64,000 nucleotides of DNA, taken from NCBI GenBank assembly GCA_963748625.1, contig CAVVJT010000007.1, positions 1,152,001 through 1,216,000 of the forward strand, given 5' to 3'. Made by a program: the position numbers and the translations under genes. Of this stretch, positions 38,862 through 54,017 are shown piece after piece (the first letter of the stretch is position 1; each line of letters begins with the position of its first letter). The notes beneath the pieces are model-generated. The model had not been told where the DNA came from. It was given only the letters and a program-made list of their open reading frames with translations, and ran no database searches. The DNA is from an uncultured Chloroflexia bacterium. Its GTDB lineage: Bacteria > Chloroflexota > Limnocylindria > Limnocylindrales > CSP1-4.

Positions 38862-40334
38862 CTAGCTGATCGCCGCGGCGGCGGTCCCGACGATCGTGAG
38901 GAGGATCTCCGGGAAGAGGCCGAACACGATCGTGAGCACCGTGGCAACCGTCAGGCCGGCCCAGACCAGCCGACCGTGGCGCATGACCACCGGTTCGCCC
39001 TCCGCGTCGCGCATCCACATGTAGACCACGACACGAAGGTAGTAGAACGCGGCAACCGCGGCATTGAGCATCGTCACCACGGCGAGGACGGTCATCCAGC
39101 CGCCGGCGTTGACCGCGGCCAGGATCACGTAGAACTTGCCGAAGAAGCCGGCCGTCGGCGGGATGCCGGTGAGGCTCAGCAGGAACAAGGTCATCAGGAT
39201 CGCGAGCTTGGGCTCGCGGCGGATGAGGCCGGCGAACGTCGAGAGGTTGGAGGTCACACCCTGGCGGCGCTGGATGGCCGCGATGACCGCGAAGGCGCCC
39301 AGGTTCATGAACGCGTACGCCGCGCCGTAGAACAGCAGCCCCTCCAGGCCCAGGATCTCGCCCTGTGCGAACGCCGCCAGGCCCACGAGCATGTAGCCGG
39401 TGTGCGCGATGGACGAGTACGCCAGCATGCGCTTGACGTTGTCCTGCGTGAGCGCGACCAGGTTGCCCAGGGTCATCGTGAGGACCGCGAGCACCATGAC
39501 GACGGCACTCCAGTAGTCGGCGGAGAGCGGCCCGAGGGCCTCGCCGAACAGGCGGAGGATCAGGGCGAAGGCACCCACCTTCGGGCCGACCGACAGGTAG
39601 CCGGTGACCGGCGTCGGGGAGCCCTGGTACGCGTCGGGCGTCCAGTAGTGGAACGGGACGGCCGCGATCTTGAACGCGACACCCGTCATCAGGAAGGCAA
39701 GCCCGAGGCCCAGGCCCGGTGTCATGGCGACGGCGCCGCTGGCCATCTGGGTCATGACGGCCGCGACGCCCGAGATGCTCGTGGTGCCCGTGAGACCCCA
39801 GACGAACGCGAGGCCGAACAGGAAGATCGCGGACGAGAAGGAGCCCAGGAGGAAGTACTTGATCGCACCCTCGGTGCTGTAGCCGTCGGTCTTGTGGTAC
39901 CCCGCGAGGATGTAGCCCGGCAGGACCATGAGCTCGAGGCCCAGGAACAGCACCAGCAGGTCCGCGGATGCCGCGATGAGCATCGCGCCCGACATTGCGA
40001 ACGCGAGAATCGCAGCGAACTCGGGCACCGGCAGGCCCCGTGCCTCGAGGTAGTCCGGCGCGAACATCATCGTGAGCGCGACGATCGCGATGAACAGGAT
40101 GTCCAGGAAGGTCGTCAGCGGGTCGACGATGTAGACCCCGTTGAAGGCCGTGGAAGTGGCGCCGTCTGCGCCGACCATCAGGGTCAGGGCCGCGGTCAGC
40201 CCCAGGCCCAGGAACGTGGTCAGCAGCGCCGGGACCTTGCGGCCCGGGAAGATGAAGTCGACGATCAGGACCGCCGCCGCGACGAGGACCGCCGCGATGA
40301 AGGGCGCGATGACGATGACGTCGGAGAAGCTCAC
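38862..40334 (-). CDS. nuoN: NADH-quinone oxidoreductase subunit N
   Basis: EGAIKYFLLGS, FKIAAVPFHYWTPDAYQGSP, KRMLAYSSIAHTGY, GIPPTAGFFGK. Confidence 0.96.
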   Translation of the reverse strand: MSFSDVIVIAPFIAAVLVAAAVLIVDFIFPGRKVPALLTTFLGLGLTAALTLMVGADGATSTAFNGVYIVDPLTTFLDILFIAIVALTMMFAPDYLEARGLPVPEFAAILAFAMSGAMLIAASADLLVLFLGLELMVLPGYILAGYHKTDGYSTEGAIKYFLLGSFSSAIFLFGLAFVWGLTGTTSISGVAAVMTQMASGAVAMTPGLGLGLAFLMTGVAFKIAAVPFHYWTPDAYQGSPTPVTGYLSVGPKVGAFALILRLFGEALGPLSADYWSAVVMVLAVLTMTLGNLVALTQDNVKRMLAYSSIAHTGYMLVGLAAFAQGEILGLEGLLFYGAAYAFMNLGAFAVIAAIQRRQGVTSNLSTFAGLIRREPKLAILMTLFLLSLTGIPPTAGFFGKFYVILAAVNAGGWMTVLAVVTMLNAAVAAFYYLRVVVYMWMRDAEGEPVVMRHGRLVWAGLTVATVLTIVFGLFPEILLTIVGTAAAAIS

Positions 40335-40344
40335 CGTGGTCCTC

Positions 40345-41895
40345 CTACCGCCACAGGGACTGGGCGACGGGGGCGGCCTGTTGGACGAATTCGAGCGTCG
40401 TCTCGACCGAGCCTTGGATCAAGTCCAGGATGAGACCCGGCCAGAGGCCGAAGATCACGACGAGGGCTCCGAGCGGGACCAGGGTCAACGCCTCGACCGG
40501 CCGCATGTCGGTGAGGTGGGACCCCAAGCCCTTGAGGAAGTCCGATAGTTCGCCGAATGCCACGCGCTGGAACATCCAGAGCAGGTAGCCCGCGGCGAAG
40601 ATCATCACGAAGGTGGCAATCAGAGCCGCCAACTGGTTGGCCTCGAAGGTGCCGACCAGGGTCAGGAACTCGCCGACGAACCCGGACAGGCCCGGCAGGC
40701 CGACCGAGGCGAAGACGAAGAACCCGAACGCCGCGGCGAACACTGGGGTCTTCGACCCGAGGCCACCCATCTTGGCGATGGTGCGGTCATGCGTGCGCTC
40801 GTAGATCACGCCCACGAGGAGGAACAGGGCGCCGGTGATGAGACCGTGGTTGACCATCTGCAGGATCGCGCCCTGGAGGCCCTGTTCCGTGAAGACGAAG
40901 ATGCCCAGCGTCACGAAGCCCATGTGGGACACGGACGAGTAGGCGACCAGCTTCTTGAGGTCCGGCTGGACCAGTGCCACGATCGCGCCGTAGATGATGC
41001 CGATCAGCGAGAGGACGATGATGACCGGCGCCCAGCTGTGGGCGGCCTCGGGGAACAGCGGCAGCGCGAAGCGGATGAAGCCGTAGCCGCCCAGCTTGAG
41101 CAGGACACCGGCCAGGATCACCGAGCCCGCCGTGGGCGCCTCGACGTGGGCGTCGGGCAGCCAGGTGTGGAACGGGAACATCGGGACCTTGATCGCGAAG
41201 GCGAGGAAGAACGCGCCGAAGGCGACCAGGCCGAAGGTGCCGCCGAAGGCGCCGGTCTGTGCGAACGAGGTCAGGTTGGTGACGCTGAAGGCGCCGTCCC
41301 AGGTCCCCGTCGTCGCCTGGTAGGTGTAGGCGCAGGCCAGGATCGCGACCAGCATCAGCAGCGAGCCGACGAGGGTGTACAGGACGAACTTGATCGTGGC
41401 GTAGATGCGGTTCTTGCCGCCCCAGATGCCGATGAGCAGGTACATCGGGACCAGGACCAGCTCCCAGAAGATGTAGAACAGGAACAGGTCCAGGGCGACG
41501 AACACGCCGATCATGCCCACCTCGAGGACCAGGAAGGAGACCATGTACTCCTTGACCCGGTTCTGGATGGGACCGAACGACGCAAGGATGCTGATCCAGG
41601 TGAGGGTCGTCGTCAGGACGACGAGCACGATCGACAGCCCGTCAACGCCCACGGCGTAGTTGATCCCGAACATCGGGATCCACGGGATGCTCTCCATGAA
41701 CTGGTAGCCGGGTGTGCCCGCCACGAAGGCGGCGAGCATCAGGAGCGAGGCGACCCAGGCCGCCAGCGCGAAGCCGAGGGCCGTGTAGCGCGCTGCGTTG
41801 GGCCGGCTCGAGGGCGTGAACGCGACAACGAGCGCGCCCAGGAGCGGCAGGAACGTGACGAGGGTCACGAGCGGGAGCGAGGTCAGCGCGCTCAT
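40345..41895 (-). CDS. nuoM: NADH-quinone oxidoreductase subunit M
   Basis: FYIFWELVLVPMY, AIKVPMFPFHTWLPDAHVEAPTAGS, GLPGLSGFVGEF. Confidence 0.96.
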   Translation of the reverse strand: MSALTSLPLVTLVTFLPLLGALVVAFTPSSRPNAARYTALGFALAAWVASLLMLAAFVAGTPGYQFMESIPWIPMFGINYAVGVDGLSIVLVVLTTTLTWISILASFGPIQNRVKEYMVSFLVLEVGMIGVFVALDLFLFYIFWELVLVPMYLLIGIWGGKNRIYATIKFVLYTLVGSLLMLVAILACAYTYQATTGTWDGAFSVTNLTSFAQTGAFGGTFGLVAFGAFFLAFAIKVPMFPFHTWLPDAHVEAPTAGSVILAGVLLKLGGYGFIRFALPLFPEAAHSWAPVIIVLSLIGIIYGAIVALVQPDLKKLVAYSSVSHMGFVTLGIFVFTEQGLQGAILQMVNHGLITGALFLLVGVIYERTHDRTIAKMGGLGSKTPVFAAAFGFFVFASVGLPGLSGFVGEFLTLVGTFEANQLAALIATFVMIFAAGYLLWMFQRVAFGELSDFLKGLGSHLTDMRPVEALTLVPLGALVVIFGLWPGLILDLIQGSVETTLEFVQQAAPVAQSLWR

Positions 41896-43952
41896 CGGGG
41901 CTGCCCCACGATCCACAGGAAGGAGACCGCCATCACGATCAGGCCGACCGCGATGCCCAGGGCGTAGTTCTGCACCCGCCCCGTCTGGATCCTCCGCAAG
42001 CCTCCGCCTGCGTCCCTGGTCACGCTGCCCACGCCGTTGACGGTGCCGTCCACGATCGCGCGGTCGAACCACCAGAGGAACGCGGCGACGCGGCCGCCGA
42101 TCCGGATGAAGAGCAGGTCATTGAGCTCGTCGAACCACCACTTGTTGAGGGAGGCGCGGTAGAGGAAGCGGGTGCCGCTGTTGCGGGCCACGATCGCGTC
42201 GACCTTCGCCTGCTTCACTGGCCGCTTGAAGATGCCGAACAGGTAGATGCCGACGGAGATGCCGAGGGCCGCCGCGGCGACCGAGATCAGCACGAGAACG
42301 CCGTCGATGCCCATCAGCGCGAACGCCTCGGGCGTGCCGTGGAGGTACTCCTCGGCCTCGTGGAACACCGGCTCGAGCCAGCCGACGATCGTGCTCTCCT
42401 GGCCCAGGAACAGCGCGCCGCCGAGGACCAGGCCCAGGAGCATCGAGGGGATGGCGAGCAGGATCAGCGGGACGGTCATCCACTTGCTGCTCTCATGGAT
42501 GTGCGGTTCGACCGCCGGATCCACGCGGGACTCGCCGTAGAAGGTCTTGCCCATGAGGCGCCACATGTAGAACGCGGTCATGACCGCGACCGTCACGCCG
42601 ATGGCCCAGACCCACTGGAAGCCGAACTTGAACGCCTCGCCCAGGATCTCGTCCTTCGAGAAGAAGCCCGCGAAGGGCGGGATGCCGGCGATCGCGATCG
42701 TGCCGATCAGCATCGTCCAGTGGGTGATCGGGATCTTCCTCCACAGGCCGCCCATCCGGTTCATGTCCTGCTCGTCGTGGACCGCGTGGATCACGGAGCC
42801 GGACCCGAGGAACAGCAGGCCCTTGAAGAAGCCATGGGTCATCAGGTGGAAGATCGCCGGGATGAACGCGCCCACGCCGAGCCCGGAGAACATCAGGCCC
42901 AGCTGGGACAGCGTGGAGTACGCGAGCACGCGCTTGATGTCCGTCTGGGTGAAGGCGATCGACGCAGCGAGGATCGCGGTGAAGATGCCGATCGCGGCCA
43001 CCACCACCATGGCGTCCTGCGCGTGGGCGAACAGCAGGTTGGAGCGGGCGACGAGATAGACGCCCGCGTTGACCATCGTTGCGGCGTGGATCAGGGCAGA
43101 GACCGGGGTGGGACCCTCCATCGCGTCCGGCAGCCAGACGTGGAGCGGGAACTGGGCCGACTTGCCCATCGCGCCCGCGAAGACCAGCAGCGCCACGATC
43201 GTGAGCGGCACCACGTTCTCCGCGCCCGTCTCGGTCATGAGCTTGATGCTGTCCTGGATGTTCAGCGTGCCGGTGTTCACGAAGATCGCCATGATCCCAA
43301 GCGCGAACCCGACGTCACCGACGCGGTTGACGATGAAGGCTTTCTTCGCGGCAAGGGCCGCAGACCGCTTGTGGTACCAGAACCCGATCAGGGAGTAGCT
43401 CGACAGGCCCACCAGCTCCCAGCCCGCGAAGACCAGCACCCAGTTGTTGGCCAGGGTGAGCACGAGCATCGAGAACATGAACAGGTTCAGGTAGGCGAAG
43501 AAGCGCCAGGCCGCCTTGTCGTGCGCCATGTACCCGACCGAGTAGATGTGCACGAGCATGCCGATCGTGGTGACCACGATCAGGAGGGCGGCGGTGAGGG
43601 CGTCGACATGGAAGCCGAGCTCGACCTGGAACGAGCCCGCCGGGATCCATGTCCAGAGCATCACGTCGAGACCCTGCTCGCCGAAGGGCTCCATGTGGTT
43701 CAGGGCGGGCCAGACCACGGCCATCGTGATCAGCCACACGGCGATCACGACCAGGACCGGGACGGCCTCAGCCGCGCCGCGCCCCCACTTCGCCTGCAGC
43801 CGGCGCCCGAACAGCGCGGTGAAGGCGAAGCCGAGGATCGGCAGCAGCGCGATGAGCGGGATCAGGATCCCGTAGATGCCGGGATCGGCGGATGCGCCGC
43901 CTTCGACGGCGGTCTCCGTGGAGGCGAGGATGAGGCTCGGGAGGAAGTGCAT
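41892..43952 (-). CDS. nuoL: NADH-quinone oxidoreductase subunit L
   Basis: KAFIVNRVGD, GKSAQFPLHVWLPDAMEGPTPVSALIHAATMV, QTGRVQNY. Confidence 0.97.
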   Translation of the reverse strand: MHFLPSLILASTETAVEGGASADPGIYGILIPLIALLPILGFAFTALFGRRLQAKWGRGAAEAVPVLVVIAVWLITMAVVWPALNHMEPFGEQGLDVMLWTWIPAGSFQVELGFHVDALTAALLIVVTTIGMLVHIYSVGYMAHDKAAWRFFAYLNLFMFSMLVLTLANNWVLVFAGWELVGLSSYSLIGFWYHKRSAALAAKKAFIVNRVGDVGFALGIMAIFVNTGTLNIQDSIKLMTETGAENVVPLTIVALLVFAGAMGKSAQFPLHVWLPDAMEGPTPVSALIHAATMVNAGVYLVARSNLLFAHAQDAMVVVAAIGIFTAILAASIAFTQTDIKRVLAYSTLSQLGLMFSGLGVGAFIPAIFHLMTHGFFKGLLFLGSGSVIHAVHDEQDMNRMGGLWRKIPITHWTMLIGTIAIAGIPPFAGFFSKDEILGEAFKFGFQWVWAIGVTVAVMTAFYMWRLMGKTFYGESRVDPAVEPHIHESSKWMTVPLILLAIPSMLLGLVLGGALFLGQESTIVGWLEPVFHEAEEYLHGTPEAFALMGIDGVLVLISVAAAALGISVGIYLFGIFKRPVKQAKVDAIVARNSGTRFLYRASLNKWWFDELNDLLFIRIGGRVAAFLWWFDRAIVDGTVNGVGSVTRDAGGGLRRIQTGRVQNYALGIAVGLIVMAVSFLWIVGQPR

Positions 43953-43964
43953 CTCGATCCCCGC

Positions 43965-44297
43965 CTACTGCCGCATCGCGTCGTACTCGTCGACGAGCGG
44001 CGTCTTCTTGTTGCGGTAGATCGCGATCACGATGGCCAGGCCCACCGTCGCCTCGGCGGCTGCGGCCGCCATCACGACGAGGGCGATGACCGAGGCGTCC
44101 ACGTTCAGCGACAGGCTGAAGGCGCCGAAGGCGATGATCGCGAGGTTGACGGCGTTGAGCATCAGCTCGATCGACATCAGCATGCTGATCGCGTTGCGCC
44201 GCGCCAGGAAGCCGAAGGTGCCGATCGCGAACAGGAGGCCCGCGAGGACCAGGTACGCGTCGAGGCTCTGGCTGATCCCGTCGAGGAAGGAGAGCAT
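43965..44297 (-). CDS. nuoK: NADH-quinone oxidoreductase subunit K
   Basis: RRNAISMLMSIELMLNAVN, AAAEATVGLAI. Confidence 0.96.
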   Translation of the reverse strand: MLSFLDGISQSLDAYLVLAGLLFAIGTFGFLARRNAISMLMSIELMLNAVNLAIIAFGAFSLSLNVDASVIALVVMAAAAAEATVGLAIVIAIYRNKKTPLVDEYDAMRQ

Positions 44298-44833
44298 CAG
44301 TCGGTGCCCCCCTTCTCGCGCTTGGCGATGAAGATCCCGCCGATCACGGCCGAGAGGAGCAGGACGCTCACGACCTCGAACGGGAGGACGTAGCCGTCGA
44401 AGAGGCGGGTCGCGAGCTCCACGGTGTTCGTCCAGATCCGGGCGCCGGACTCCGGCCACTCGGTGGAGGCGACCACCACCGCGATGAGGATCGCGAGCAC
44501 CGCGGATGCGATCGCGGCCGGGAACCACTGGGTCTGGAAGACCAGCTCCCTGGGGCCGGCCTTGGACTGGGTCAGCATGATCGCGAACAGGACCAGCACG
44601 CTGATGGCGCCGATGTAGACGAGCACCTGCGTCGCGGCCACCACGGGGGCCCCCGCCAGCACGTAGAGCCCGGCCAGCGCGGCGAAGCAGATGATCATCG
44701 CCAGGCCGCAGCGGATGATGTCGCGCATGGCGACAACCAGGATGGCCGAGCCGACCATGATGGCCGCCAAGGTCATGAACAGGAGGTCATCCCAAGCGAA
44801 CCCCAGCAGCGGGATCGTCTCCGGCAGCGTCAC
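44297..44833 (-). CDS. nuoJ: NADH-quinone oxidoreductase subunit J
   Basis: QVLVYIGAISVLVLFAIML, YVLPFEVVSVLLL. Confidence 0.95.
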   Translation of the reverse strand: MTLPETIPLLGFAWDDLLFMTLAAIMVGSAILVVAMRDIIRCGLAMIICFAALAGLYVLAGAPVVAATQVLVYIGAISVLVLFAIMLTQSKAGPRELVFQTQWFPAAIASAVLAILIAVVVASTEWPESGARIWTNTVELATRLFDGYVLPFEVVSVLLLSAVIGGIFIAKREKGGTD

Positions 44834-44842
44834 GCGTCCCTC

Positions 44843-47471
44843 TCAGCGTTCGTGGGCGTGGCTCGACCCGTTGCCGGAGTCGTGGCCATTGCCGTTCCCG
44901 AGCGAGGCAGGCAGGACGGGGAGCAGCCGGGCCTGGTCGATGGTTCGACCCTCGGCCCGGGCACGCTCGGCCCAGTCGCGCTCGCGGCGGATGTAGCTCA
45001 TCTCTGTCTCGCGCTCCACCGAGGCCAGGGCGAGCAGGTCGATCATCGGCTCCTCGCGGCTGACGTGGGCAAGCTCGAACTGGTCCGAATCGCGGACGGC
45101 GTCGTACGGGCAGGCGTCGACGCAGATGCCGCACAGGATGCAGCGGCTCTCGTCGACGTCGTACTTCTGCAGCACCCGGGGCTTGGGCATCAGCGCCCCC
45201 GTGGGGCACGTCTCGGCACAGCGGCCGCAGGACACGCACGGCGTGTCGTTGAGGCTCATGTCGAGCGGCGTCGTCACCAGGGTGTCGAAGCCGATCCGCA
45301 TGAAGTCGTAGCAGGCGGCGCCCACCACCTCTGCGCAGACGTTGGCGCAGCGGCCGCAGTCGATGCAGCGCGAGGGCTCGCGGAGGATGAAGGCGTGGGA
45401 GTCGTCGCGGACGTAGTCGTGGTTGACGCCGGTGAAGCGGTTCTCGGTGACCGAGCGGTACCCGGCGCCCTGGTGGTAGCCCTTCTCCAGGGACTTGAGC
45501 GTGGTCCCGTACTCGATGCCCAGGCGGCGCAGGTCGCAGAAGCCAATCGCCTCGCAGGTGCACTGCAGGCAGCGGGTGGACTCCTTGATGGCCTCGTCGC
45601 GGGTGTACGGAATCTCGTACTCGACGTACGTGGTCTTGACCTCTTCGAGGTCCAGGGCCTTGAGGCGGTAGCGCGGCTCCTTCGGCTCGCCGGTGAACGG
45701 CACGATCGAGAGGAACTCCGGCTGCGGCTCGGCCAGCGTCTGGCGGGTCCGGATGGCGGCGAGGTCGTTGCCCTTGAGGTAGGCGTCCACCGCGTAGGCG
45801 GCACGCCGACCCTCGGCGATGGCCTGGACCACGGTCGCGGCGCCGATTCGCACGTCGCCGGCGCCGAAGACGCCGGGGCGGCCGGTCTCGAAGGTGACCG
45901 CGTCGGCCTGGAGCCGGCGGTTCTTCGTGGCCGCGATCCCGCCGGACCCGTTGCCGAGCCAGCGCAGGTCGGGGCCCTGGCCGATCGCGAGCATGACGCG
46001 GTCGCAGGGGATGGTGAACTCGGTGCCGGCGGCGGGCTCGGGGCGGCGGCGACCGGACGCGTCGGGCTCGCCCAGCTGCATCCGGATGAACTCGATGCCC
46101 TCCACCTTGCCGCTCTCGCCCACGATCACGCGGGTGGGGCCGGCCTGGAAGATGGCGACGACGCCCTCATCGAGCGCCTCGTGGACCTCGGAGGCCGCCG
46201 GCATGTCCTTCATGTCGCGCCGGTAGACCAGCGTGACCTCGGGGCTGCCCTGGCGGATGGAGGTGCGCACGGTGTCCATCGCGGAGAAGCCACCGCCGAC
46301 CACCACGACGCGGGCCTTGTCATGGCCCGGGTACGGGAGGCCCAGGGTGGCGGTGCGCAGGTAGTCGAGGGCGTCGATGACGCCGTCCGCGTCCTCGCCC
46401 GGGATGCCGAGCTTGTTCGTGTCGTAGCAGCCGATGGCGACCACGACCGCGTCGAAGCCCTGGTGCTGCAGGTCCTCGACCGTGAAGTCCTTGCCCAGCT
46501 CCTGGTTGCAGCGCATCTTCCCACCGAGGCGGGTGACGGACTCGTACTCAGCCTCGAGGACCTCGACCTTGGGCAGGCGGTACTGCGGGATGCCGTACCG
46601 GAGCATGCCGCCCGGCGCAGGGTCACGCTCGAAGACGGTCACTTCGTGGCCCGAGAGCAGGAGGTAGAAGGCGGCCGACATGCCGGCGGGTCCGGAGCCG
46701 ATGACGGCGGCGCGGCGGCCGGACGGGGCCTGCTTCTCGAAGGGGAGCGGGGGATCGACGTTCTCGTCGTGCATGGCGCGCAGGACCTGGTCGCCGGCGT
46801 ACCGGTGGCTGTCGCGGATCGCGATCGCCTCGTCGACCTCGTCGCGCCGGCAGTGCTCCTCGCACGGGGCGGGACAGACGCGGCCGAGCACGCTGGGGAA
46901 CGGGATGGTGCGCTTGAAGATCCGCACCGACTCGCGCCAGTTCGCCTCGGCGTTCGCCTTGAGGAAGCCCGGGATGTCGATGTGGCTGGGGCACTTGTTC
47001 TGGCAGGGCGGCAGGCAGTACGCGTTGTGGTCCGAGAAGATCAGCTCGAGGTTGGTCTTGCGGATCCGGCGCAGCTCGTCGGTCTGGGTCTGGACCTTCA
47101 TCTCGGGCTCGGCCAGGCGCGAGCAGGAGATCGGCGGCTGGTCCTCGCCCTCCACCTCGACCACGCACATCCGGCAGGCACCGAAGCCCGGCAGCTTGGG
47201 CTCGTAGCAGAGGGTGGGGATCTCGATGCCGTTGTCACGGCAGACCTCGAGGATCGTCTGGCCCTCGAAGCCCTCGATCAGGCGGCCGTCCACCTCGAGG
47301 CGGATGCGCGGCGTGCTCTGGGGCCGCTGCGGGCTCTGCGTGGTGATGAACCGCTCCGCGAGGGAGTCCTCGCTGCGGCGTGATGGTGTCCAGGGTGGCC
47401 GGCTGGTCGGGCCGGACCTCCTTGTTGCGGGTCGCGGGGACGTCCTGGGGACGAACGATGAGGTCGGCCAT
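44843..47471 (-). CDS. Fusion: NuoG-like FeS N-terminus, GltD/NfnB-like FAD/NADPH oxidoreductase, 2x4Fe-4S domain, NuoI C-terminal half; frameshift at about 47375
   Basis: IPTLC..GACRMC..ISC (2Fe-2S); PCQNKCP, GRVCPAPCEEHC; GSGPAG; GGGFSAMD..VYRR; RCLQCTC; CIDCGRCANVC; CVSCGRCAETCP; YDVDESRCILCGICVDACPYDAV..FELA; TGATG-coupled to nuoF. Confidence 0.88.
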
Positions 47472-48809
47472 CAGCGGGCTCCTGCTGCCGTCGCACCGGC
47501 GCCCATCGCGATCGGCGTACAGACGCCGGCCGGGCAGGTGGAGCGAACAAGGTGGTCGTCGAGCTCGGAGCGGAAGTGGCGCATGGCGCTGGTGAACGCC
47601 AGGGTGGCCTTGCGCTCGTGGTCGCAGAGCGCGGAGGCCGAGATGTCGTGGGCGAGGTCCTCGAGCAGGACCGCGTCGTTGGCGCGCGGGGTGCCCGCCG
47701 CGATCCGGTCGCCGATCTCCGAGAGACGGCGCAGGCCGATGCGGCACGGGATGCTCTTCCCGCAGGCGTTGTCGGCGGAGAAGCGGGTCAGGAGCCGGGC
47801 GAGGTCGACGACACAGGCCCGGTCGTCCGCGATCACCACGGAGCCGGAGCCGACGTGCGCGCCGGCGGCCTCGAGCGAGGCGTAGTCGTAGGGGGTGTCC
47901 AGGAGGTCGGCCGGGAGGAGCCCGCCCGTGGAGCCGCCGACCAGGACCGCCTTGAGCGGGCGCCCGCCGGTGCCGCCCGGCAGCGGCCACGAGGTCACGT
48001 AGCGGGGTGCCCAGGGCCACCTCGACGATGCCGCCGCCCTGCGGGCCACGGACCGCGACGAGCGTGGTGCCCGGCGAGCCAGGGATGCCGATGGCCGAGT
48101 ACGCCTCACCGCCCAGCCGCACGATCCAGGGGACCGCGGCGAGCGTGAGGATGTTGTGGACAAGGGTGGGCTTGTCGAACAGGCCGCGCTCGGTGGGGTA
48201 GGGCGGCTTCTGCTCGGGCTGGCCGCGCTTGCCCTCGAGGGCCTTGAGCAGGACCGTCTCCTCGCCCAGCATGTAGGCCCCCTGGAGGCCGCGGACCGTC
48301 ACGTTGACCGTGTGCCCGGAACCCAGGATGTCCTCGCCCAGGAGGTTCGCCTCCTCGGCCGCCTGGACCGCGCCCTCGAGCATGGCCACAAGCCCCGCGT
48401 CCTCGCCGCGGACGACGAGGATCGCCTCCGTGGCGCCGACGGCGTAGGCCGCGATCACGAGGCCCTCGATGACGAGGTACGGGTCGGCGGTGAGCAGCGC
48501 CTGGTCGATGCGGACCGACGGGTCGGCGCCGTAGCCGTTGGCGACCACGTAGCGCTGGACGGGGCCGGACTCGGCGACCGCGCGCCACTTGTCGGCGGCG
48601 GGGTAGCCGGCGCCGCCGCGGCCGCGCAGCCCGGCGGCCCGGATGGTCGCCATCGTGGTGGTGCCGCCATCGCGGACGGCCTTGCGCAGGCCCTCGAACG
48701 CGCCCGCCTTGACGGCGGCGTCCAGGTCGGCCGGGTTGGCCTTGAGCGTCTCCATGCGGCCGGTGAGGACCGCGGGCGTGCCGGCCTTGGCGGGGAGGAA
48801 GGTGGTCAT
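47471..48809 (-). CDS. nuoF: Divergent NuoF/HydB-like subunit; frameshift at about 47977
   Basis: GLRGRGGAGYP..KW, GAYMLGEETVLL..LEGKRGQP, GSGSV, ACGKSIPCRIG, LC, CPAGVC. Confidence 0.85.
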
Positions 48810-49471
48810 CAGCTCGCCTTGCCCCCGTAGCCGAGCGACGCGTCGAGCGCCGAGCGGAAGCGGTCCTCGGCCACGACCTGCGCGGTGCCGGCCGCGGGTG
48901 CGGTCGCGACGGCCGGCGGCTCGAAGCGGAGGTGCCGGTAGTAGGTCGCGGTGCCGTAGATCATCGCGTACCAGGCGCCCGTGGCGCGGGAGATGTGCTT
49001 GAGCGCGGCCACCGGCAGGTAGCCGTACTCGGCCTGCGTCTCGTCGAGGATCGCGAGCATCTCCTTGGGGTCCCAGTCATGGGCCTCGAGGATCGCGTCG
49101 AGCGGGGCGATGTCGATGCCGTCGAAGCGGGTGTACGCCATGTCGGCAACCGGGCGGCCGGAGCGGCGCAGCGCGGACTCCTCGCGGCGCTCGCCGTAGG
49201 TCTCGGATGCGCCCCAGTGGACGTGGAACCGGCCCTTGGTGTCCACGCCGCCCATGTCGATGCACTCGATCGGACAGGCCTGGGCGCACTGGAAGCAGGT
49301 CTCGCACTTGAGCGAGCCGTACTCGTCGTACAGGAGCTGCAGGCGGCCGCGGAACTTGGGCGCGACGTCCGCCTTCTCCTCGGGCCACTTGATGGTCGCC
49401 TTCGGCTGGAAGAAGCGGCGCAGCGTCAGGCTCATGCCGCGGACGAGACCGATGCCGGGGATCGTGTTCAT
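48809..49471 (-). CDS. Fusion of NuoI N-terminal half (one CxxCxxCxxxCP) with NuoE N-terminal helical domain (no 2Fe-2S domain)
   Basis: GMSLTLRRFF..T..WPEE..FRGR..CETCFQCAQACP, then LAILDETQAEYGYLP..IYGTATYY..LRFEP. Confidence 0.88.
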   Translation of the reverse strand: MNTIPGIGLVRGMSLTLRRFFQPKATIKWPEEKADVAPKFRGRLQLLYDEYGSLKCETCFQCAQACPIECIDMGGVDTKGRFHVHWGASETYGERREESALRRSGRPVADMAYTRFDGIDIAPLDAILEAHDWDPKEMLAILDETQAEYGYLPVAALKHISRATGAWYAMIYGTATYYRHLRFEPPAVATAPAAGTAQVVAEDRFRSALDASLGYGGKAS

Positions 49472-50880: not shown

Positions 50881-52125
50881 CTACTTGTCGATGCCGCCCA
50901 TGATCGGGTCGAGCGATGACATCACTGCCATCGTGTCCGCGATCAGGTTGCCCTTCACCAGCAGGCCGACCAGCTGCAGGTTCACAAACGACGGGTCGTG
51001 GATCTTGAGCCGGAACGGCTGGTCGGTGCCGTCGGAGATGGCGTAGGTTCCGAACAGGCCGCGCGGGCCTTCGACAGCCGCCCAGGCGCGCCCGGGCCGC
51101 GGCCGGACCAGCCGGGGCAGGCGTGCCATGACGGGTCCATCGGGCATGTTGTGGAGGCACTGGTCGATGATCCGCAGGCTCTGCTTGATCTCGTCGAGGC
51201 GCAGCAGGTAGCGGTCCAGGGAGTCACCGCCCTCCGGGCCGGTGCCGCGGACGGGGATGTCGAACTCGAGCTCCGGGTACACGGAGTAGGGATGGTCGCG
51301 GCGGAGGTCGAACTTGACCCCGGCGGCCCGCAGGTTGGGGCCGGTGACACCCATCCGGAACGCGAGGTCGGGGTCCACCCGGCCGATGTCGCGCATGCGG
51401 CGGACGAAGATCTCGTTCTCGTTGAGCAGGCCGGCGTTGGCCTCGATCTGGGTCAGCGCGCGGCTCATCCAGTCGCCCAGGCGGGACATGAACTCGTGGT
51501 TGACGTCGCCGTTCACGCCGCCGATGCGGAAGTAGTTGAACAGCATCCGCTGGCCGGTGATGGAGGCCAGCATCTCCACGATCTCGTCGCGCTCGATGAA
51601 CGCGTAGAGGATGGGCGTGAGGCCGCCGAGGTCGAGCGCCATGAACCCCTGGAAGAGGCCGTGGCTCGAGATGCGCAGCAGCTCGCCGGTCAGCACGCGG
51701 ATGTACTCGGCGCGCCTGGGGACCTCGACGTCGAGCAGCTGCTCGAACGCCATCACCGGCGCCCACTCGCAGAACAGCGAGCTCACGTACTCGAGCGGGT
51801 CCATCTGGGTGATGACGTGGTGGTAGTCCGAGTTCTCGGCGATCTTCTCCACGCCCCGGTGGAGGTATCCGAGGACCGGGTCCAGGTCCACGACCTGCTC
51901 GCCGTTGATCTTGAGGACGACGCGCAGCACGCCGTGCGTGGACGGGTGGTGCGGACCCATGTTGATGAGCATCTCGCCGTCGGCCACGGAGTAGAACTCG
52001 GCCTCGCGCTCGGTGCGCGGCGGATACGGCGGGATGGACTCGAACTGCCCGATCTGGTCGTCGAGCATGATCCGCGGGTCGTCCAGGGAGGGGTGCTGGC
52101 CCGGGCGGGCCTGGGAGGTCGTCAT
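50881..52125 (-). CDS. nuoD: NADH-quinone oxidoreductase subunit D
   Basis: NMGPHHPSTHGVLR, GYLHRGVEK, EGPRG, DPIMGGIDK. Confidence 0.97.
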   Translation of the reverse strand: MTTSQARPGQHPSLDDPRIMLDDQIGQFESIPPYPPRTEREAEFYSVADGEMLINMGPHHPSTHGVLRVVLKINGEQVVDLDPVLGYLHRGVEKIAENSDYHHVITQMDPLEYVSSLFCEWAPVMAFEQLLDVEVPRRAEYIRVLTGELLRISSHGLFQGFMALDLGGLTPILYAFIERDEIVEMLASITGQRMLFNYFRIGGVNGDVNHEFMSRLGDWMSRALTQIEANAGLLNENEIFVRRMRDIGRVDPDLAFRMGVTGPNLRAAGVKFDLRRDHPYSVYPELEFDIPVRGTGPEGGDSLDRYLLRLDEIKQSLRIIDQCLHNMPDGPVMARLPRLVRPRPGRAWAAVEGPRGLFGTYAISDGTDQPFRLKIHDPSFVNLQLVGLLVKGNLIADTMAVMSSLDPIMGGIDK

Positions 52126-52127
52126 GG

Positions 52128-52676
52128 TCAGGCCTTCACCGTGCGGCGCACGACACGCTCCGTCGCCTGGACGGGCACGTGGGACCGCTCCATCTGGCGC
52201 ACGCCGGCGCCGGGGGAGCGGGCGGCGTCGTCGGGGAGATAGAAGTCCTTGCGGAGCGGAAAGCTGACGTAGTCCGGCGGCATGTAGATGCGCCGCAGGT
52301 CCCGGTTCCCCTCGAAGACGATCCCGAACATGTCGTACGTCTCGCGCTCCATCCACTCGGCACCGGGCCACAGGCCGGTCAGCGTGGGTACGCGCGGGTT
52401 GTCACGCGGGAGCGGTTCGCAGATCACGCGCAGCCAGTCCGGCGTCGTGGCCGCCCAGACGTGGTAGGTCACGTTCATGTGCTCGCCGGTGTCCACGCCG
52501 GCAAGGTCCGCCAGCATGACGAAGGCGAAGTCCGGCTCGTCGTGGAGCGCGGTCAGGACCTCGATGACGTCCGCCGGGCCGACGCGGATCTCGGTCTGGT
52601 CGTGCCGCTGGCGGACGGGTCCCACGAGCCTGTCCGCGAACCGTGCCTCGAGGCGCTTGCGCAGCTGACGGTCCAC
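52128..52676 (-). CDS. nuoC: NADH-quinone oxidoreductase subunit C
   Basis: DLAGVD, WPGAEWMERETYDMFGIVFEG, PLRKDF. Confidence 0.95.
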   Translation of the reverse strand: MDRQLRKRLEARFADRLVGPVRQRHDQTEIRVGPADVIEVLTALHDEPDFAFVMLADLAGVDTGEHMNVTYHVWAATTPDWLRVICEPLPRDNPRVPTLTGLWPGAEWMERETYDMFGIVFEGNRDLRRIYMPPDYVSFPLRKDFYLPDDAARSPGAGVRQMERSHVPVQATERVVRRTVKA

Positions 52677-52678
52677 GG

Positions 52679-53428
52679 CTAGACGTCCTTCGGCACGGTG
52701 GGGCCGACGCGGTGCTCGTCCCAGTGGCCGCGCCGCTCCTTCACGAGCTGGCCCAGCTTCATCATCCCGTAGATGAGACCCTCGGGACGCGGCGGGCACC
52801 CGGGGACGTACACGTCCACCGGCATCAGGCGGTCGATGCCCTCAACCGTGGCGTACGAGCGCTTGTAGCGGCCGCCCGAGCAGGTGCAGTCACCCATCGC
52901 CACGCACCACTTGGGCTCCGGCATCTGCTCCCACAGGCGGACGAGCGGACCGGCCATCTTGGTGGTGAGCGTGCCCGCGACGATCAGCACGTCCGCCTGG
53001 CGGGGGCTGGCGCGGAACGGGAACATGCCCCAGCGGTCCATGTCGTTCTTGGACGTGGCGCTGGACATCATCTCGAACGCGCAGCAGGCGAGGCCCGACA
53101 GCAGCGGCCAGAGGCTGTTCATCCGGATCAGGTCGACGATGTAGTCGGCCTTGGTGGGGATCACCTCGAGCTGGCCCCAGCGCGCGGTGTCGGACACCTG
53201 GCCGTCCGTGCCCTCGAGGGCCGCGAGGTGGTAGTAGGGCGCGGGGGCCGGGTAGGCGGCGGGGTTGTTCGAGGCCCAGAGGGAGTTCGGCACGATCAGC
53301 GGGGCCGCCACGCCGGACGGCTGTGCCGAGACCAGCGCGCCGGGCAGGCTCCCGGGCTGGTCAGCGCCAATGGGTGAGGCATCACCCGCCGCGGCAGCGG
53401 CCTCGGGACCTTCGGGGTTCAGCGCCAC
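52679..53428 (-). CDS. nuoB: NADH-quinone oxidoreductase subunit B
   Basis: GLACCAFEMM, RASPRQAD, MPEPKWCVAMGDC, PVDVYVPGCPPRPE. Confidence 0.97.
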   Translation of the reverse strand: MALNPEGPEAAAAAGDASPIGADQPGSLPGALVSAQPSGVAAPLIVPNSLWASNNPAAYPAPAPYYHLAALEGTDGQVSDTARWGQLEVIPTKADYIVDLIRMNSLWPLLSGLACCAFEMMSSATSKNDMDRWGMFPFRASPRQADVLIVAGTLTTKMAGPLVRLWEQMPEPKWCVAMGDCTCSGGRYKRSYATVEGIDRLMPVDVYVPGCPPRPEGLIYGMMKLGQLVKERRGHWDEHRVGPTVPKDV

Positions 53429-53775
53429 GACAGCACTCCCTTGCGCCAGGCATAGGCGAGGCCGAGCAGGAGGACGCCGACGAAGATCAGCATGCTCACG
53501 AGGCCGCCCAGCAACAGGTCCTGGAAGACCAGGGCCCAGAGGTAGATGAACACGACCTCGATGTCGAAGGCCACGAACATCAGCGCGTAGATGTAGAAGC
53601 TGATGCCGAACCGGGCGTGGGTGTCGCCGTAGGTGTCGATGCCCGACTCGTAGGGGTAGCCCTTGTGCTCGTCACCGCGGGTGCGGTGGGAGATCAGCCA
53701 GGCCAGGCCGATCGTGCCGAAGACGAACAGGGTGCCGGCGATGGCGAACCCGACGACATACCAGATCCCGGTCAC
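53419..53775 (-). CDS. nuoA: NADH-quinone oxidoreductase subunit A
   Basis: YESGID, FVAFDIEVVFIYLWA, YAWRKGVLSW; GAGG RBS before GTG. Confidence 0.95.
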   Translation of the reverse strand: MTGIWYVVGFAIAGTLFVFGTIGLAWLISHRTRGDEHKGYPYESGIDTYGDTHARFGISFYIYALMFVAFDIEVVFIYLWALVFQDLLLGGLVSMLIFVGVLLLGLAYAWRKGVLSWR

Positions 53776-53885
53776 GTGATCCTCGAGGTCGAATGGGACC
53801 GCGTGTGCACTGCGCGGTCCGCGTTCGAGGTGTGATGGTTTGTTGCGTGTGCACCGGACCTCACTGGGCGAGGCACGGCGCGGAC

Positions 53886-53894
53886 ATTCTAGCA
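53886..53894 (-). promoter_or_regulatory. Extended -10 promoter of the nuo operon
   Basis: Minus strand TGcTAGAAT about 110 nt upstream of nuoA. Confidence 0.6.
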
Positions 53895-54017
53895 AGGCAG
53901 GTGCTGGAGGAATCACCTTCCGGCCCAGTCATGGCGGCCCATCCGGCTCTCAACGTGGGGGCCGGTGGCGCCCTCCGGGTGGCACGCGGTCGTGACCGGC
54001 GCCGGCTCGATCGCCAC

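Follow-up and report, generated by a model that had tools for sequence, protein, structure and literature searches.

The stretch of DNA analysed here (hereafter the window), 64,000 nucleotides of contig CAVVJT010000007.1 from an uncultured bacterium of the class Limnocylindria, encodes on its (-) strand one nuo operon for respiratory complex I in which nuoI, the gene for the subunit with two [4Fe-4S] clusters, is divided between two polypeptides. The genes run in the order nuoA-B-C-D-H, fusion gene 1, a nuoF-like gene, fusion gene 2 and nuoJ-K-L-M-N. The N-terminal half of NuoI forms the beginning of fusion protein 1, and its C-terminal half forms the tail of a large iron-sulfur (Fe-S) flavoprotein encoded by fusion gene 2, directly before nuoJ. 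A three-gene cassette of the Stn/Nfn type interrupts nuoI, and the reading frame is kept at both junctions. We think it likely that this arrangement represents a lineage-wide variant of respiratory complex I in which the two halves of NuoI pair and the module feeds the quinone site.

The two halves of NuoI

Fusion gene 1 (48809..49471) starts 3 nucleotides after the stop codon of nuoH and encodes a protein of 220 residues with a single CxxCxxCxxxCP motif at residues 56-67. The NuoI models of NCBIfam cover just residues ~9-83 of this protein, which continues through a linker into a NuoE-like N-terminal helical domain without the cysteine (Cys) ligands of a 2Fe-2S cluster. The helical domain (residues 125-187; window 48911..49099) matches positions 2-64 of the 145 positions of PF01257 (2Fe-2S_thioredx, the NuoE family) with an E-value of 1e-08; the thioredoxin-like, cluster-binding part of the family is gone in the family of the window. 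A first-pass annotation, made from the letters of this DNA alone, had described an N-terminal half of NuoI after nuoH that runs on into NuoE-like sequence, and the presence of both matches in one open reading frame (ORF) bears this out. It had also placed the missing C-terminal half at the tail of a large oxidoreductase directly before nuoJ. This too is what we find: fusion gene 2 (44843..47471, of which only 44843-47293 is open in this assembly, as an ORF of 816 residues) ends 9 nucleotides from the nuoJ start at 44833, and residues 718-729, in the tail of its product, form the third motif of the type CxxCxxCxxxCP.

Searched in six frames with TIGR01971, a NuoI model of 121 positions, the complete genome yielded both portions. 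Model positions 1-66 matched at window 49238-49438 (51.9 bits; residues 12-78 of fusion protein 1), and positions 71-116 matched at 45041-45178 (43.3 bits; residues 706-751 of the large ORF), with no overlap between the two matches. The complementary coverage proposed in the first-pass annotation is thereby recovered on the model, and it is seen again on NuoI chains of solved structures. The N-terminal half aligned to residues 16-87 of the 169 of Arabidopsis 7ar7_I, 17-81 of the 163 of Paracoccus 8qby_I and 8-89 of Mycolicibacterium 8e9g_I, and the C-terminal half to residues 99-148, 93-147 and 84-129 of the same three chains, respectively. In the structure-chain search with the C-terminal half, polyferredoxins outrank NuoI only through summed weak repeats, and no single polyferredoxin stretch passes the threshold.

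The elements of NuoI are all accounted for by the two proteins. Fusion protein 1 has the N-terminal region and the first CxxCxxCxxxCP motif, and the large protein has the second such motif together with the flanking Y-x-[VI]-D strand and the F-E-x-[AS] tail, which read Y-D-V-D and F-E-L-A in the window (residues 706-760; 45014..45178). The break point corresponds to the loop between the two cluster motifs. Residues C56, C59, C62, C66 and P67 of fusion protein 1 are invariant in 10 of 10 aligned sequences with identities down to 30%, and C718, C721, C724, C728 and P729 of the large protein in 16 of 16 with identities down to 45%. The further claim that both fusions are continuous ORFs stands for both fusion junctions; it does not extend to the nuoF-like gene or to the 5' end of fusion gene 2, both of which are frameshifted in this assembly (see below).

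Absence of another NuoI for this complex

None of the 34 matches to TIGR01971 in the six-frame search of the genome is a single-polypeptide NuoI above the curated cut-off of the model (113.05 bits). When the 14 proteins of the window were used as queries in tblastn, nuoA, C, H, J, K and M were found to be single-copy in the 4.63-Mb genome. The best TIGR01971 match in the genome, at 53.7 bits, is a protein of 114 residues encoded on contig C7 (69027-69314), which is HycF-like and scores best, at 80 bits, against the family of the formate hydrogenlyase iron-sulfur subunit. Its gene is flanked on one side by a NuoB-like gene and on the other by a fused NuoC/D-like gene that also matches models of the NiFe-hydrogenase large subunit, and two antiporter-like genes adjoin. 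The cluster as a whole (68581-75974) is of the group-4-hydrogenase type and lies ~1.13 Mb from the nuo operon. Given these NuoB-, NuoC/D- and antiporter-like partners of its own and its hydrogenase-type family, we rejected the HycF-like gene as a candidate NuoI of the nuo operon, which it would be unlikely to serve. An intact nuoI elsewhere in the service of this complex, which the first-pass annotation would have taken as a refutation, was not found: no match is over the cut-off, and the sole other NuoI-like gene lies in a hydrogenase-type cluster.

Conservation within Limnocylindria

The division of NuoI is common to the relatives of this bacterium, of which the first-pass annotation had proposed a survey. 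Fusion protein 1 was found in 40 of 41 close-relative genomes, the genome of the window included (23/24 in the family of the window, f1, and 16/16 in a second family of its order, f2). Across the class it was found in 188 of 201 genomes (f1 59/60; f2 7/7; f3 56/66; f4 65/66; f5 0/1), a tally that takes in eight unpublished genomes (G102, G122, G126, G131, G145, G156, G183 and G190; no conclusion depends on unpublished genomes alone), and by the NuoI model the single f5 genome carries both halves. A survey of the same class and of the same 201-genome design, which likely takes in some or all of the same unpublished genomes, found only 6 of 201 genomes (five of f3 and one of f4) with an undivided NuoI that passes the cut-off. 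There was none in the 67 genomes of f1 and f2, which make up the order of the window, and none in the 60 of its family.

Among public records, those closest to the window have titles that name Chloroflexota or Candidatus Limnocylindrales. In the scan of these records a relative is encoded in 551 of 567 candidate stretches, and the best 80 were taken as named loci. All 80 have the first Cys motif of NuoI. The C-terminal half was found in 64 of the 65 loci that have at least 4.8 kb of downstream sequence, 63 times by motif search (4.1-4.25 kb downstream on the same strand) and once, in L050, by tblastn. Gene order is the same in all eight fetched loci of f1 and f2. It is also the same in both loci of f4, apart from one extra gene before nuoJ. 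Family f3 has the genes in two loci, one with the order nuoB-D-fusion1-F-fusion2 and the other with nuoC-H-J-K-L-M-N and nothing between nuoH and nuoJ. An F subunit is present in every locus examined, and NuoB is the one gene of the quinone module (Q-module) kept beside the inserted module in every layout examined. Identical gene order across many independent assemblies refutes misassembly of the architecture.

Two further features were noted in these loci. The extra gene of f4 (L110 10963-12348), between the large gene and nuoJ, encodes a protein of 461 residues with an SRPBCC/polyketide-cyclase-like N-terminal domain and an NAD(P)-binding domain of the NmrA/epimerase type, which may resemble the accessory subunit of mitochondrial complex I of the short-chain dehydrogenase/reductase type. 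The open frame around fusion protein 1 reaches ~690-730 residues in several genomes of the family (G015, G021, G170, G210, G042 and others), and in the locus L026 of G015 it continues from nuoH. The sequences suggest that such frames are in-frame fusions with nuoH or the F gene, or that they stem from indel errors.

The inserted cassette

The first-pass annotation had spoken of a whole electron-input module inside nuoI. A module is indeed present at this place, and it is a reduced cassette of the Stn/Nfn (Bfu) type rather than NuoEFG. The Pfam layout of the large protein, in the numbering of the 816-residue ORF, comprises an N-terminal [2Fe-2S] domain of the NuoG/HydA type (residues 2-71; 47081..47290; PF13510 Fer2_4, E-value 3e-17), a GltD/NfnB-type domain (residues 93-495; 45809..47017), a ferredoxin-like domain of the HydA/NuoG type (residues 636-701; 45191..45388; PF22117 Fer4_Nqo3 and PF12838), in which there are two Cys motifs, and the C-terminal half of NuoI at residues 706-760. 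The GltD/NfnB-type domain consists of a two-cluster Fer4_20 region (PF14691, residues 93-171) and Rossmann folds for flavin adenine dinucleotide (FAD) and NADPH (PF07992 Pyr_redox_2, residues 195-495).

In searches of structure chains, the large protein aligned over its residues 2-730 with the large subunits of Bfu enzymes: 9bov_A (1e-154; residues 2-729 on 9-700 of 1178), StnC 8oh5_C (7e-139; residues 3-730 on 10-701 of 1172) and NfnA 9n5u_A (4e-138). Its GltD domain also matched 4ylf_B (7e-78) and 5jca_L (8e-74). StnC has a GltD domain (residues 102-565) within a NuoG-like protein, followed at residues 683-1172 by an inactive formate-dehydrogenase-like domain (PMC10482914). In the large protein of the window, the C-terminal half of NuoI stands in the place of this C-terminal domain of StnC and NfnA. 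The Pfam matches of the large protein include no molybdopterin family that would correspond to the molybdopterin-oxidoreductase-like C-terminal domain of NuoG, and the best stretch of the NuoG model TIGR01973 is confined to residues 2-97. In the 16-sequence alignment, C29, C40, C43 and C57 of the [2Fe-2S] domain are invariant, as are C643, C646, C649, C653, C686, C689, C692, C696 and P697 of the ferredoxin-like domain. The FAD and NADPH motifs of the GltD domain are likewise invariant, including Y357-R358-R359, and because of this NADPH is a likely donor.

The nuoF-like gene (47471..48809) has a core of the BfuB/HydB type, with the flavin mononucleotide (FMN) domain and the region of the N3-type cluster, for which the motif lies at ~47560-47590. 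In the window Complex1_51K falls in one frame and NADH_4Fe-4S in the other, matching TIGR01959 positions 9-266 and 268-409. The subunit is intact in relatives, with 446 residues in L021, and Pfam finds only Complex1_51K and NADH_4Fe-4S in the intact copy. This copy is nearer to 8a6t_B (4e-102), 9n5u_B (3e-100) and 8oh5_B (3.5e-95), which are HydB, NfnB and StnB, than to NuoF of complex I (7e-76 at best). On HydB its alignment is limited to the core (residues 160-573 of 630), and neither Pfam nor the HydB alignment gives it the C-terminal ferredoxin domain of BfuB, which holds clusters B3 and B4. As for the NuoE-like part, two other families keep the whole thioredoxin-like domain with the second Cys pair replaced.

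Taken with the stnABC gene order, these relationships point to an insert that is a cut-down BfuC-BfuB-BfuA set of the Stn/Nfn type and not NuoEFG. The stop and start codons of adjoining cassette genes (fusion gene 1 and the F gene, the F gene and fusion gene 2) have one base in common, indicating translational coupling. Elsewhere in the genome, contig C5 (85282-89559) has a paralogous, apparently soluble Nfn/Stn-like cluster, seen as tblastn matches only, with NuoE-like, NuoF-like, GltD-like, [2Fe-2S] and ferredoxin-like pieces in another order. This cluster is possibly a relative of the source of the cassette.

Frameshifts in this assembly

Two single-base differences disturb the cassette genes of the window. 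One extra base near 47976-47988 breaks the frame of the nuoF-like gene, and it is absent from 10 of 10 related loci. The second, near 47374, cuts the first 58 codons from fusion gene 2, for which the true start is the ATG at 47471; in relatives the large gene begins ~58 codons upstream of the open ORF (M-A-D-L-I...), with one base in common with the stop codon of the F gene. At both sites the extra base is absent from contigs of three of four runs (X1, X2 and X4), and run X3 showed the difference in 0 of a depth of 7.24 at the 47976-47988 site; the contigs of these runs represent relatives, ~95% alike with at most 0.33 of sampled words, rather than reads of this strain. Both frameshifts are likely to be assembly errors private to this assembly.

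Homologs outside the class and their annotation

Beyond Limnocylindria, the profile of fusion protein 1 was matched over both of its parts (model positions 4-7 to 163-197) in 31 listed genomes from five other families of the phylum, the tallies at this level taking in six unpublished genomes (G266, G362, G387, G435, G474 and G537). Seven loci fetched from outside the class have the order nuoB-fusion1-F-fusion2, and in one of them, L117, this is extended to nuoA-B-C-D-H-fusion1-F-fusion2. Proteins identical to fusion protein 1 of this group are on record for Thermogemmatispora carboxidivorans and other Thermogemmatispora, Dictyobacter vulcani, Reticulibacter mediterranei and metagenome-assembled genomes of Ktedonobacterales. 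All five of the Ktedonobacteria-type genomes examined in this respect also encode an intact NuoI (135-158 bits), within a canonical operon. One such genome has a second nuoA-C-D-H locus. The NuoA, NuoC and NuoD of this locus and the NuoB beside the module show 38, 35, 44 and 60% identity to the proteins of the window, as against 31, 33, 35 and 48% for those of the canonical operon. As the second set is nearer to the window than the canonical set, this suggests a distinct lineage of complex I. At the Ktedonobacteria-type locus L120 (2950-7727), the large gene is present twice in tandem after the F gene, the first-listed copy being in two frames near its start.

Public names of fusion protein 1 include 'ferredoxin', 'hypothetical protein', 'NAD(P)H-dependent oxidoreductase subunit E', 'NADH:ubiquinone oxidoreductase subunit E' and 'HndA', and NuoI was not the name in any annotation row examined. 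The Ktedonobacteria-type fusion protein 1 matches no Pfam family at an E-value of 0.001 or below. With such names, metabolic reconstructions of Limnocylindria and Ktedonobacteria will score their complex I as lacking NuoI. Given that cultured Thermogemmatispora, Dictyobacter and Reticulibacter carry identical proteins, the enzyme should be amenable to purification.

Comparison with known systems

Like the canonical 14-subunit complex I of Thermus thermophilus (4hea) and Paracoccus (8qby), the operon of the window has the full Q-module and membrane set in the usual order and all elements of NuoI, and one can recognize in it the FMN domain of NuoF as well as two parts of NuoG, the N-terminal [2Fe-2S] domain and the ferredoxin-like domain. 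It differs in that NuoI is on two polypeptides, NuoE is without cluster ligands, NuoG has no molybdopterin-like C-terminal domain and instead accommodates an inserted GltD-type FAD/NADPH domain, and the F subunit belongs to the Bfu lineage and has a changed N3 motif. With StnABC and NfnABC (Bfu enzymes; 8oh5, 9bov and 9n5u; PMC10482914, PMC11829005) it shares the gene order of an E-like, an F-like and a large GltD/NuoG-like protein, with alignment over the large protein and the core of F. In place of the formate-dehydrogenase-like C-terminal domain (StnC 683-1172, PMC10482914) there is half of a NuoI; the cassette has neither the BfuC cluster nor the additional domains of BfuB, and its genes lie within a nuo operon.

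Two published proposals come nearest. Schut et al. 2022 (PMC9304861) predicted a 'Nuo-Bfu' of 14 subunits, A-N, in Geobacter, Deferribacteres, Planctomycetes and Nitrospirae, in which, as here, NuoEFG gives way to a Bfu-type module placed centrally in a nuo-like operon. The BfuB of that prediction was chosen by its 4Fe-4S ferredoxin-type domain, which the F subunit of the window does not have. A Nuo-Bfu complex is taken here to have a separate NuoI; in the window the module is in the operon, but NuoI is split and fused to it. Neither a split NuoI nor the GltD domain is reported there, the words 'NuoI' and 'GltD' not occurring in its main text. Degli Esposti 2015 (PMC4758237) states that Mbx-like operons have a GltD-related flavoprotein instead of NuoI, and the likeness is that of a GltD-type NAD(P)H flavoprotein at the place of NuoI in a cluster related to complex I. 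In that account NuoI is substituted, whereas the window retains both halves, each joined to a flanking protein of the module. As far as the text of these two sources goes, neither has a split or fused NuoI. Searches of the full-text literature outside subscription journals and supplements returned neither a split NuoI nor an input module with a GltD domain fused to NuoI, which agrees with the earlier impression that no complex I of this layout had been described.

Predicted electron path and alternative explanations

In the 2[4Fe-4S] ferredoxin fold, each cluster is held by three Cys of one motif and one Cys of the other. Since each half of NuoI has a single motif, neither would complete a cluster alone and the halves would have to pair. 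From the gene anatomy, homologies, conservation and Cys invariance described above, we infer how the halves re-assemble, which donors are used and in which direction electrons flow. Pairing would rebuild the 2[4Fe-4S] domain, with clusters N6a and N6b at the interface of the two polypeptides, clamping the input module onto NuoB and NuoD. Electrons would enter from NADPH at the FAD of the GltD domain and, probably, from NADH at the FMN of the NuoF-like subunit. Both inputs would use the Fe-S chain of the large subunit to reach N6a and N6b and, from there, N2 of NuoB and the quinone, with proton pumping by NuoH and NuoJ-N.

In its fullest form, this reading posits a proton-pumping complex I with two flavin entries, NADPH at the FAD of the GltD domain and NADH at FMN, with N6a and N6b held between polypeptides and the modules coupled by Fe-S insertion; it would be the sole complex I of Limnocylindria and a second, specialized one in Ktedonobacteria. 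We put this forward tentatively, with a little less than an even chance of being correct in all its parts. If it is correct, NADPH would enter the respiratory chain directly, in the reverse direction the proton-motive force could drive the reduction of NADP+, and this would be the sole complex I of an abundant class of soil and freshwater bacteria. The lineages with the cassette include aerobic heterotrophs, unlike those of the StnABC/NfnABC comparison. More generally, a divided NuoI would be a natural complex I in which the central two-cluster subunit consists of two polypeptides and an NADPH-type flavoprotein is wired in, which is unexpected for so well-studied an enzyme and suggests a respiratory entry point for NADPH. 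A three-gene cassette within a gene, in frame at both ends, also amounts to a natural experiment on the joining of modules in the evolution of complex I.

Several observations weigh against this interpretation. The canonical 'N-x-D-E' stretch of the flavin site has its D-E replaced throughout by Y-G, Y-D or M-G. The second Cys of the N3 motif CxxCxxC is Ser (33) or Thr (32) in all 65 close loci and Ala in family f4 (L109). A complete 2Fe-2S site, the cluster C1 of BfuC, is found in the NuoE-like part of no family compared. The FMN branch may, from these replacements, be altered or inactive. Ser, Thr or Ala at the second N3 position could leave a cluster with three Cys ligands or a [3Fe-4S] cluster, or could mean that the cluster is lost. 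A missing second Cys is the pattern of [3Fe-4S] ferredoxins, which we regard as a lead and not as a result. One Limnocylindrales locus, L107, has nuoA-B-C-D-H-fusion1-F with no large gene in the following 6.5 kb, which may reflect a rearrangement, a misassembly or a large gene that has moved elsewhere. In the Ktedonobacteria-type context the module adjoins nuoB only and a canonical complex I coexists with it. Finally, if the two frameshifts of the window were real, the module would be broken in this strain.

The most probable alternative is that the NuoF-like and NuoE-like parts are structural relics and that NADPH, at the FAD of the GltD domain, is the only donor, the complex being an NADPH:quinone form of complex I. 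The replaced flavin-site residues, the altered N3 Cys and the incomplete NuoE site would all accord with it, as does the invariance of the FAD and NADPH motifs of the GltD domain. Set against this, the F subunit is kept everywhere examined, as are its GRGGAGFP and GEE(T/S) stretches along with three of its four N3 Cys, and the N3 motif is complete, the second Cys being kept, in family f3 and in Ktedonobacteria-type loci (L112 and L114). By our reasoning, moreover, the only complex I found in Limnocylindria would be expected to accept NADH, which is the main product of catabolism. On balance, we regard an enzyme fed by NADPH alone as unlikely.

An electron-confurcating enzyme of the 'Nuo-Bfu' type, as predicted for the Geobacter-type operons, would oxidize NAD(P)H and reduced ferredoxin jointly and reduce menaquinone. 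Solved Bfu enzymes are the nearest relatives of the cassette subunits, and Bfu modules in nuo-like operons have been predicted before (PMC9304861). Bifurcation is reported to need the [2Fe-2S] cluster C1 of BfuC, as part of a B1-FMN-C1 site, as well as clusters B3 and B4 of BfuB (PMC11829005), and the cassette has neither C1 nor B3 and B4. Its E part is without a complete cluster site in any family, and its F subunit, with only the two Pfam domains and the core alignment to HydB, stops short of the ferredoxin region. These absences make confurcation very unlikely here.

The two halves might also stay apart. The cassette would then encode a soluble NAD(P)H oxidoreductase distinct from the membrane complex, which would either do without NuoI or borrow the HycF-like ferredoxin. 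Such a division of labor would find some parallel in the module lying outside a full nuo operon in Ktedonobacteria-type genomes, and the genome does have a HycF/NuoI-like gene of 114 codons on contig C7. Set against this, one Cys motif per half would not suffice by the three-plus-one rule for either cluster, and all eight Cys are invariant; the two halves always co-occur; NuoB, the acceptor of electrons from NuoI, is always beside the module; and the HycF-like gene has neighbors of its own. We regard this explanation as very unlikely. An assembly artefact or a decaying pseudogene cluster, which could be invoked on account of two single-base frameshifts within ~600 nucleotides and a contamination estimate of 7.7% for the genome, deserves next to no weight, given that dozens of independent assemblies, including single-contig genomes, have the same architecture with intact frames and that the extra bases are absent from the relatives compared at the 47976-47988 site and, at both sites, from contigs of three of the four runs.

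Layout of the remaining operon

The remaining genes, like the cassette, are on the (-) strand, in a region with a G+C content of ~70%. Upstream of nuoH lies a block of four genes (50881..53916), the order of which is the same in eight of eight related loci. These are nuoA (53419-53916), nuoB (52679-53428), nuoC (52128-52799) and nuoD (50881-52371), all given as ORFs, with the true start of nuoD being later than its ORF start. They are followed by nuoH (49475..~50750, the upstream end being approximate), the sole NuoH-like gene of the genome by tblastn. Downstream of the cassette, nuoJ (44297..44833) matches PF00499 with an E-value of 1.4e-32, and nuoK, nuoL, nuoM and nuoN follow at 38862..44300 as ORFs in the same order as in related loci.

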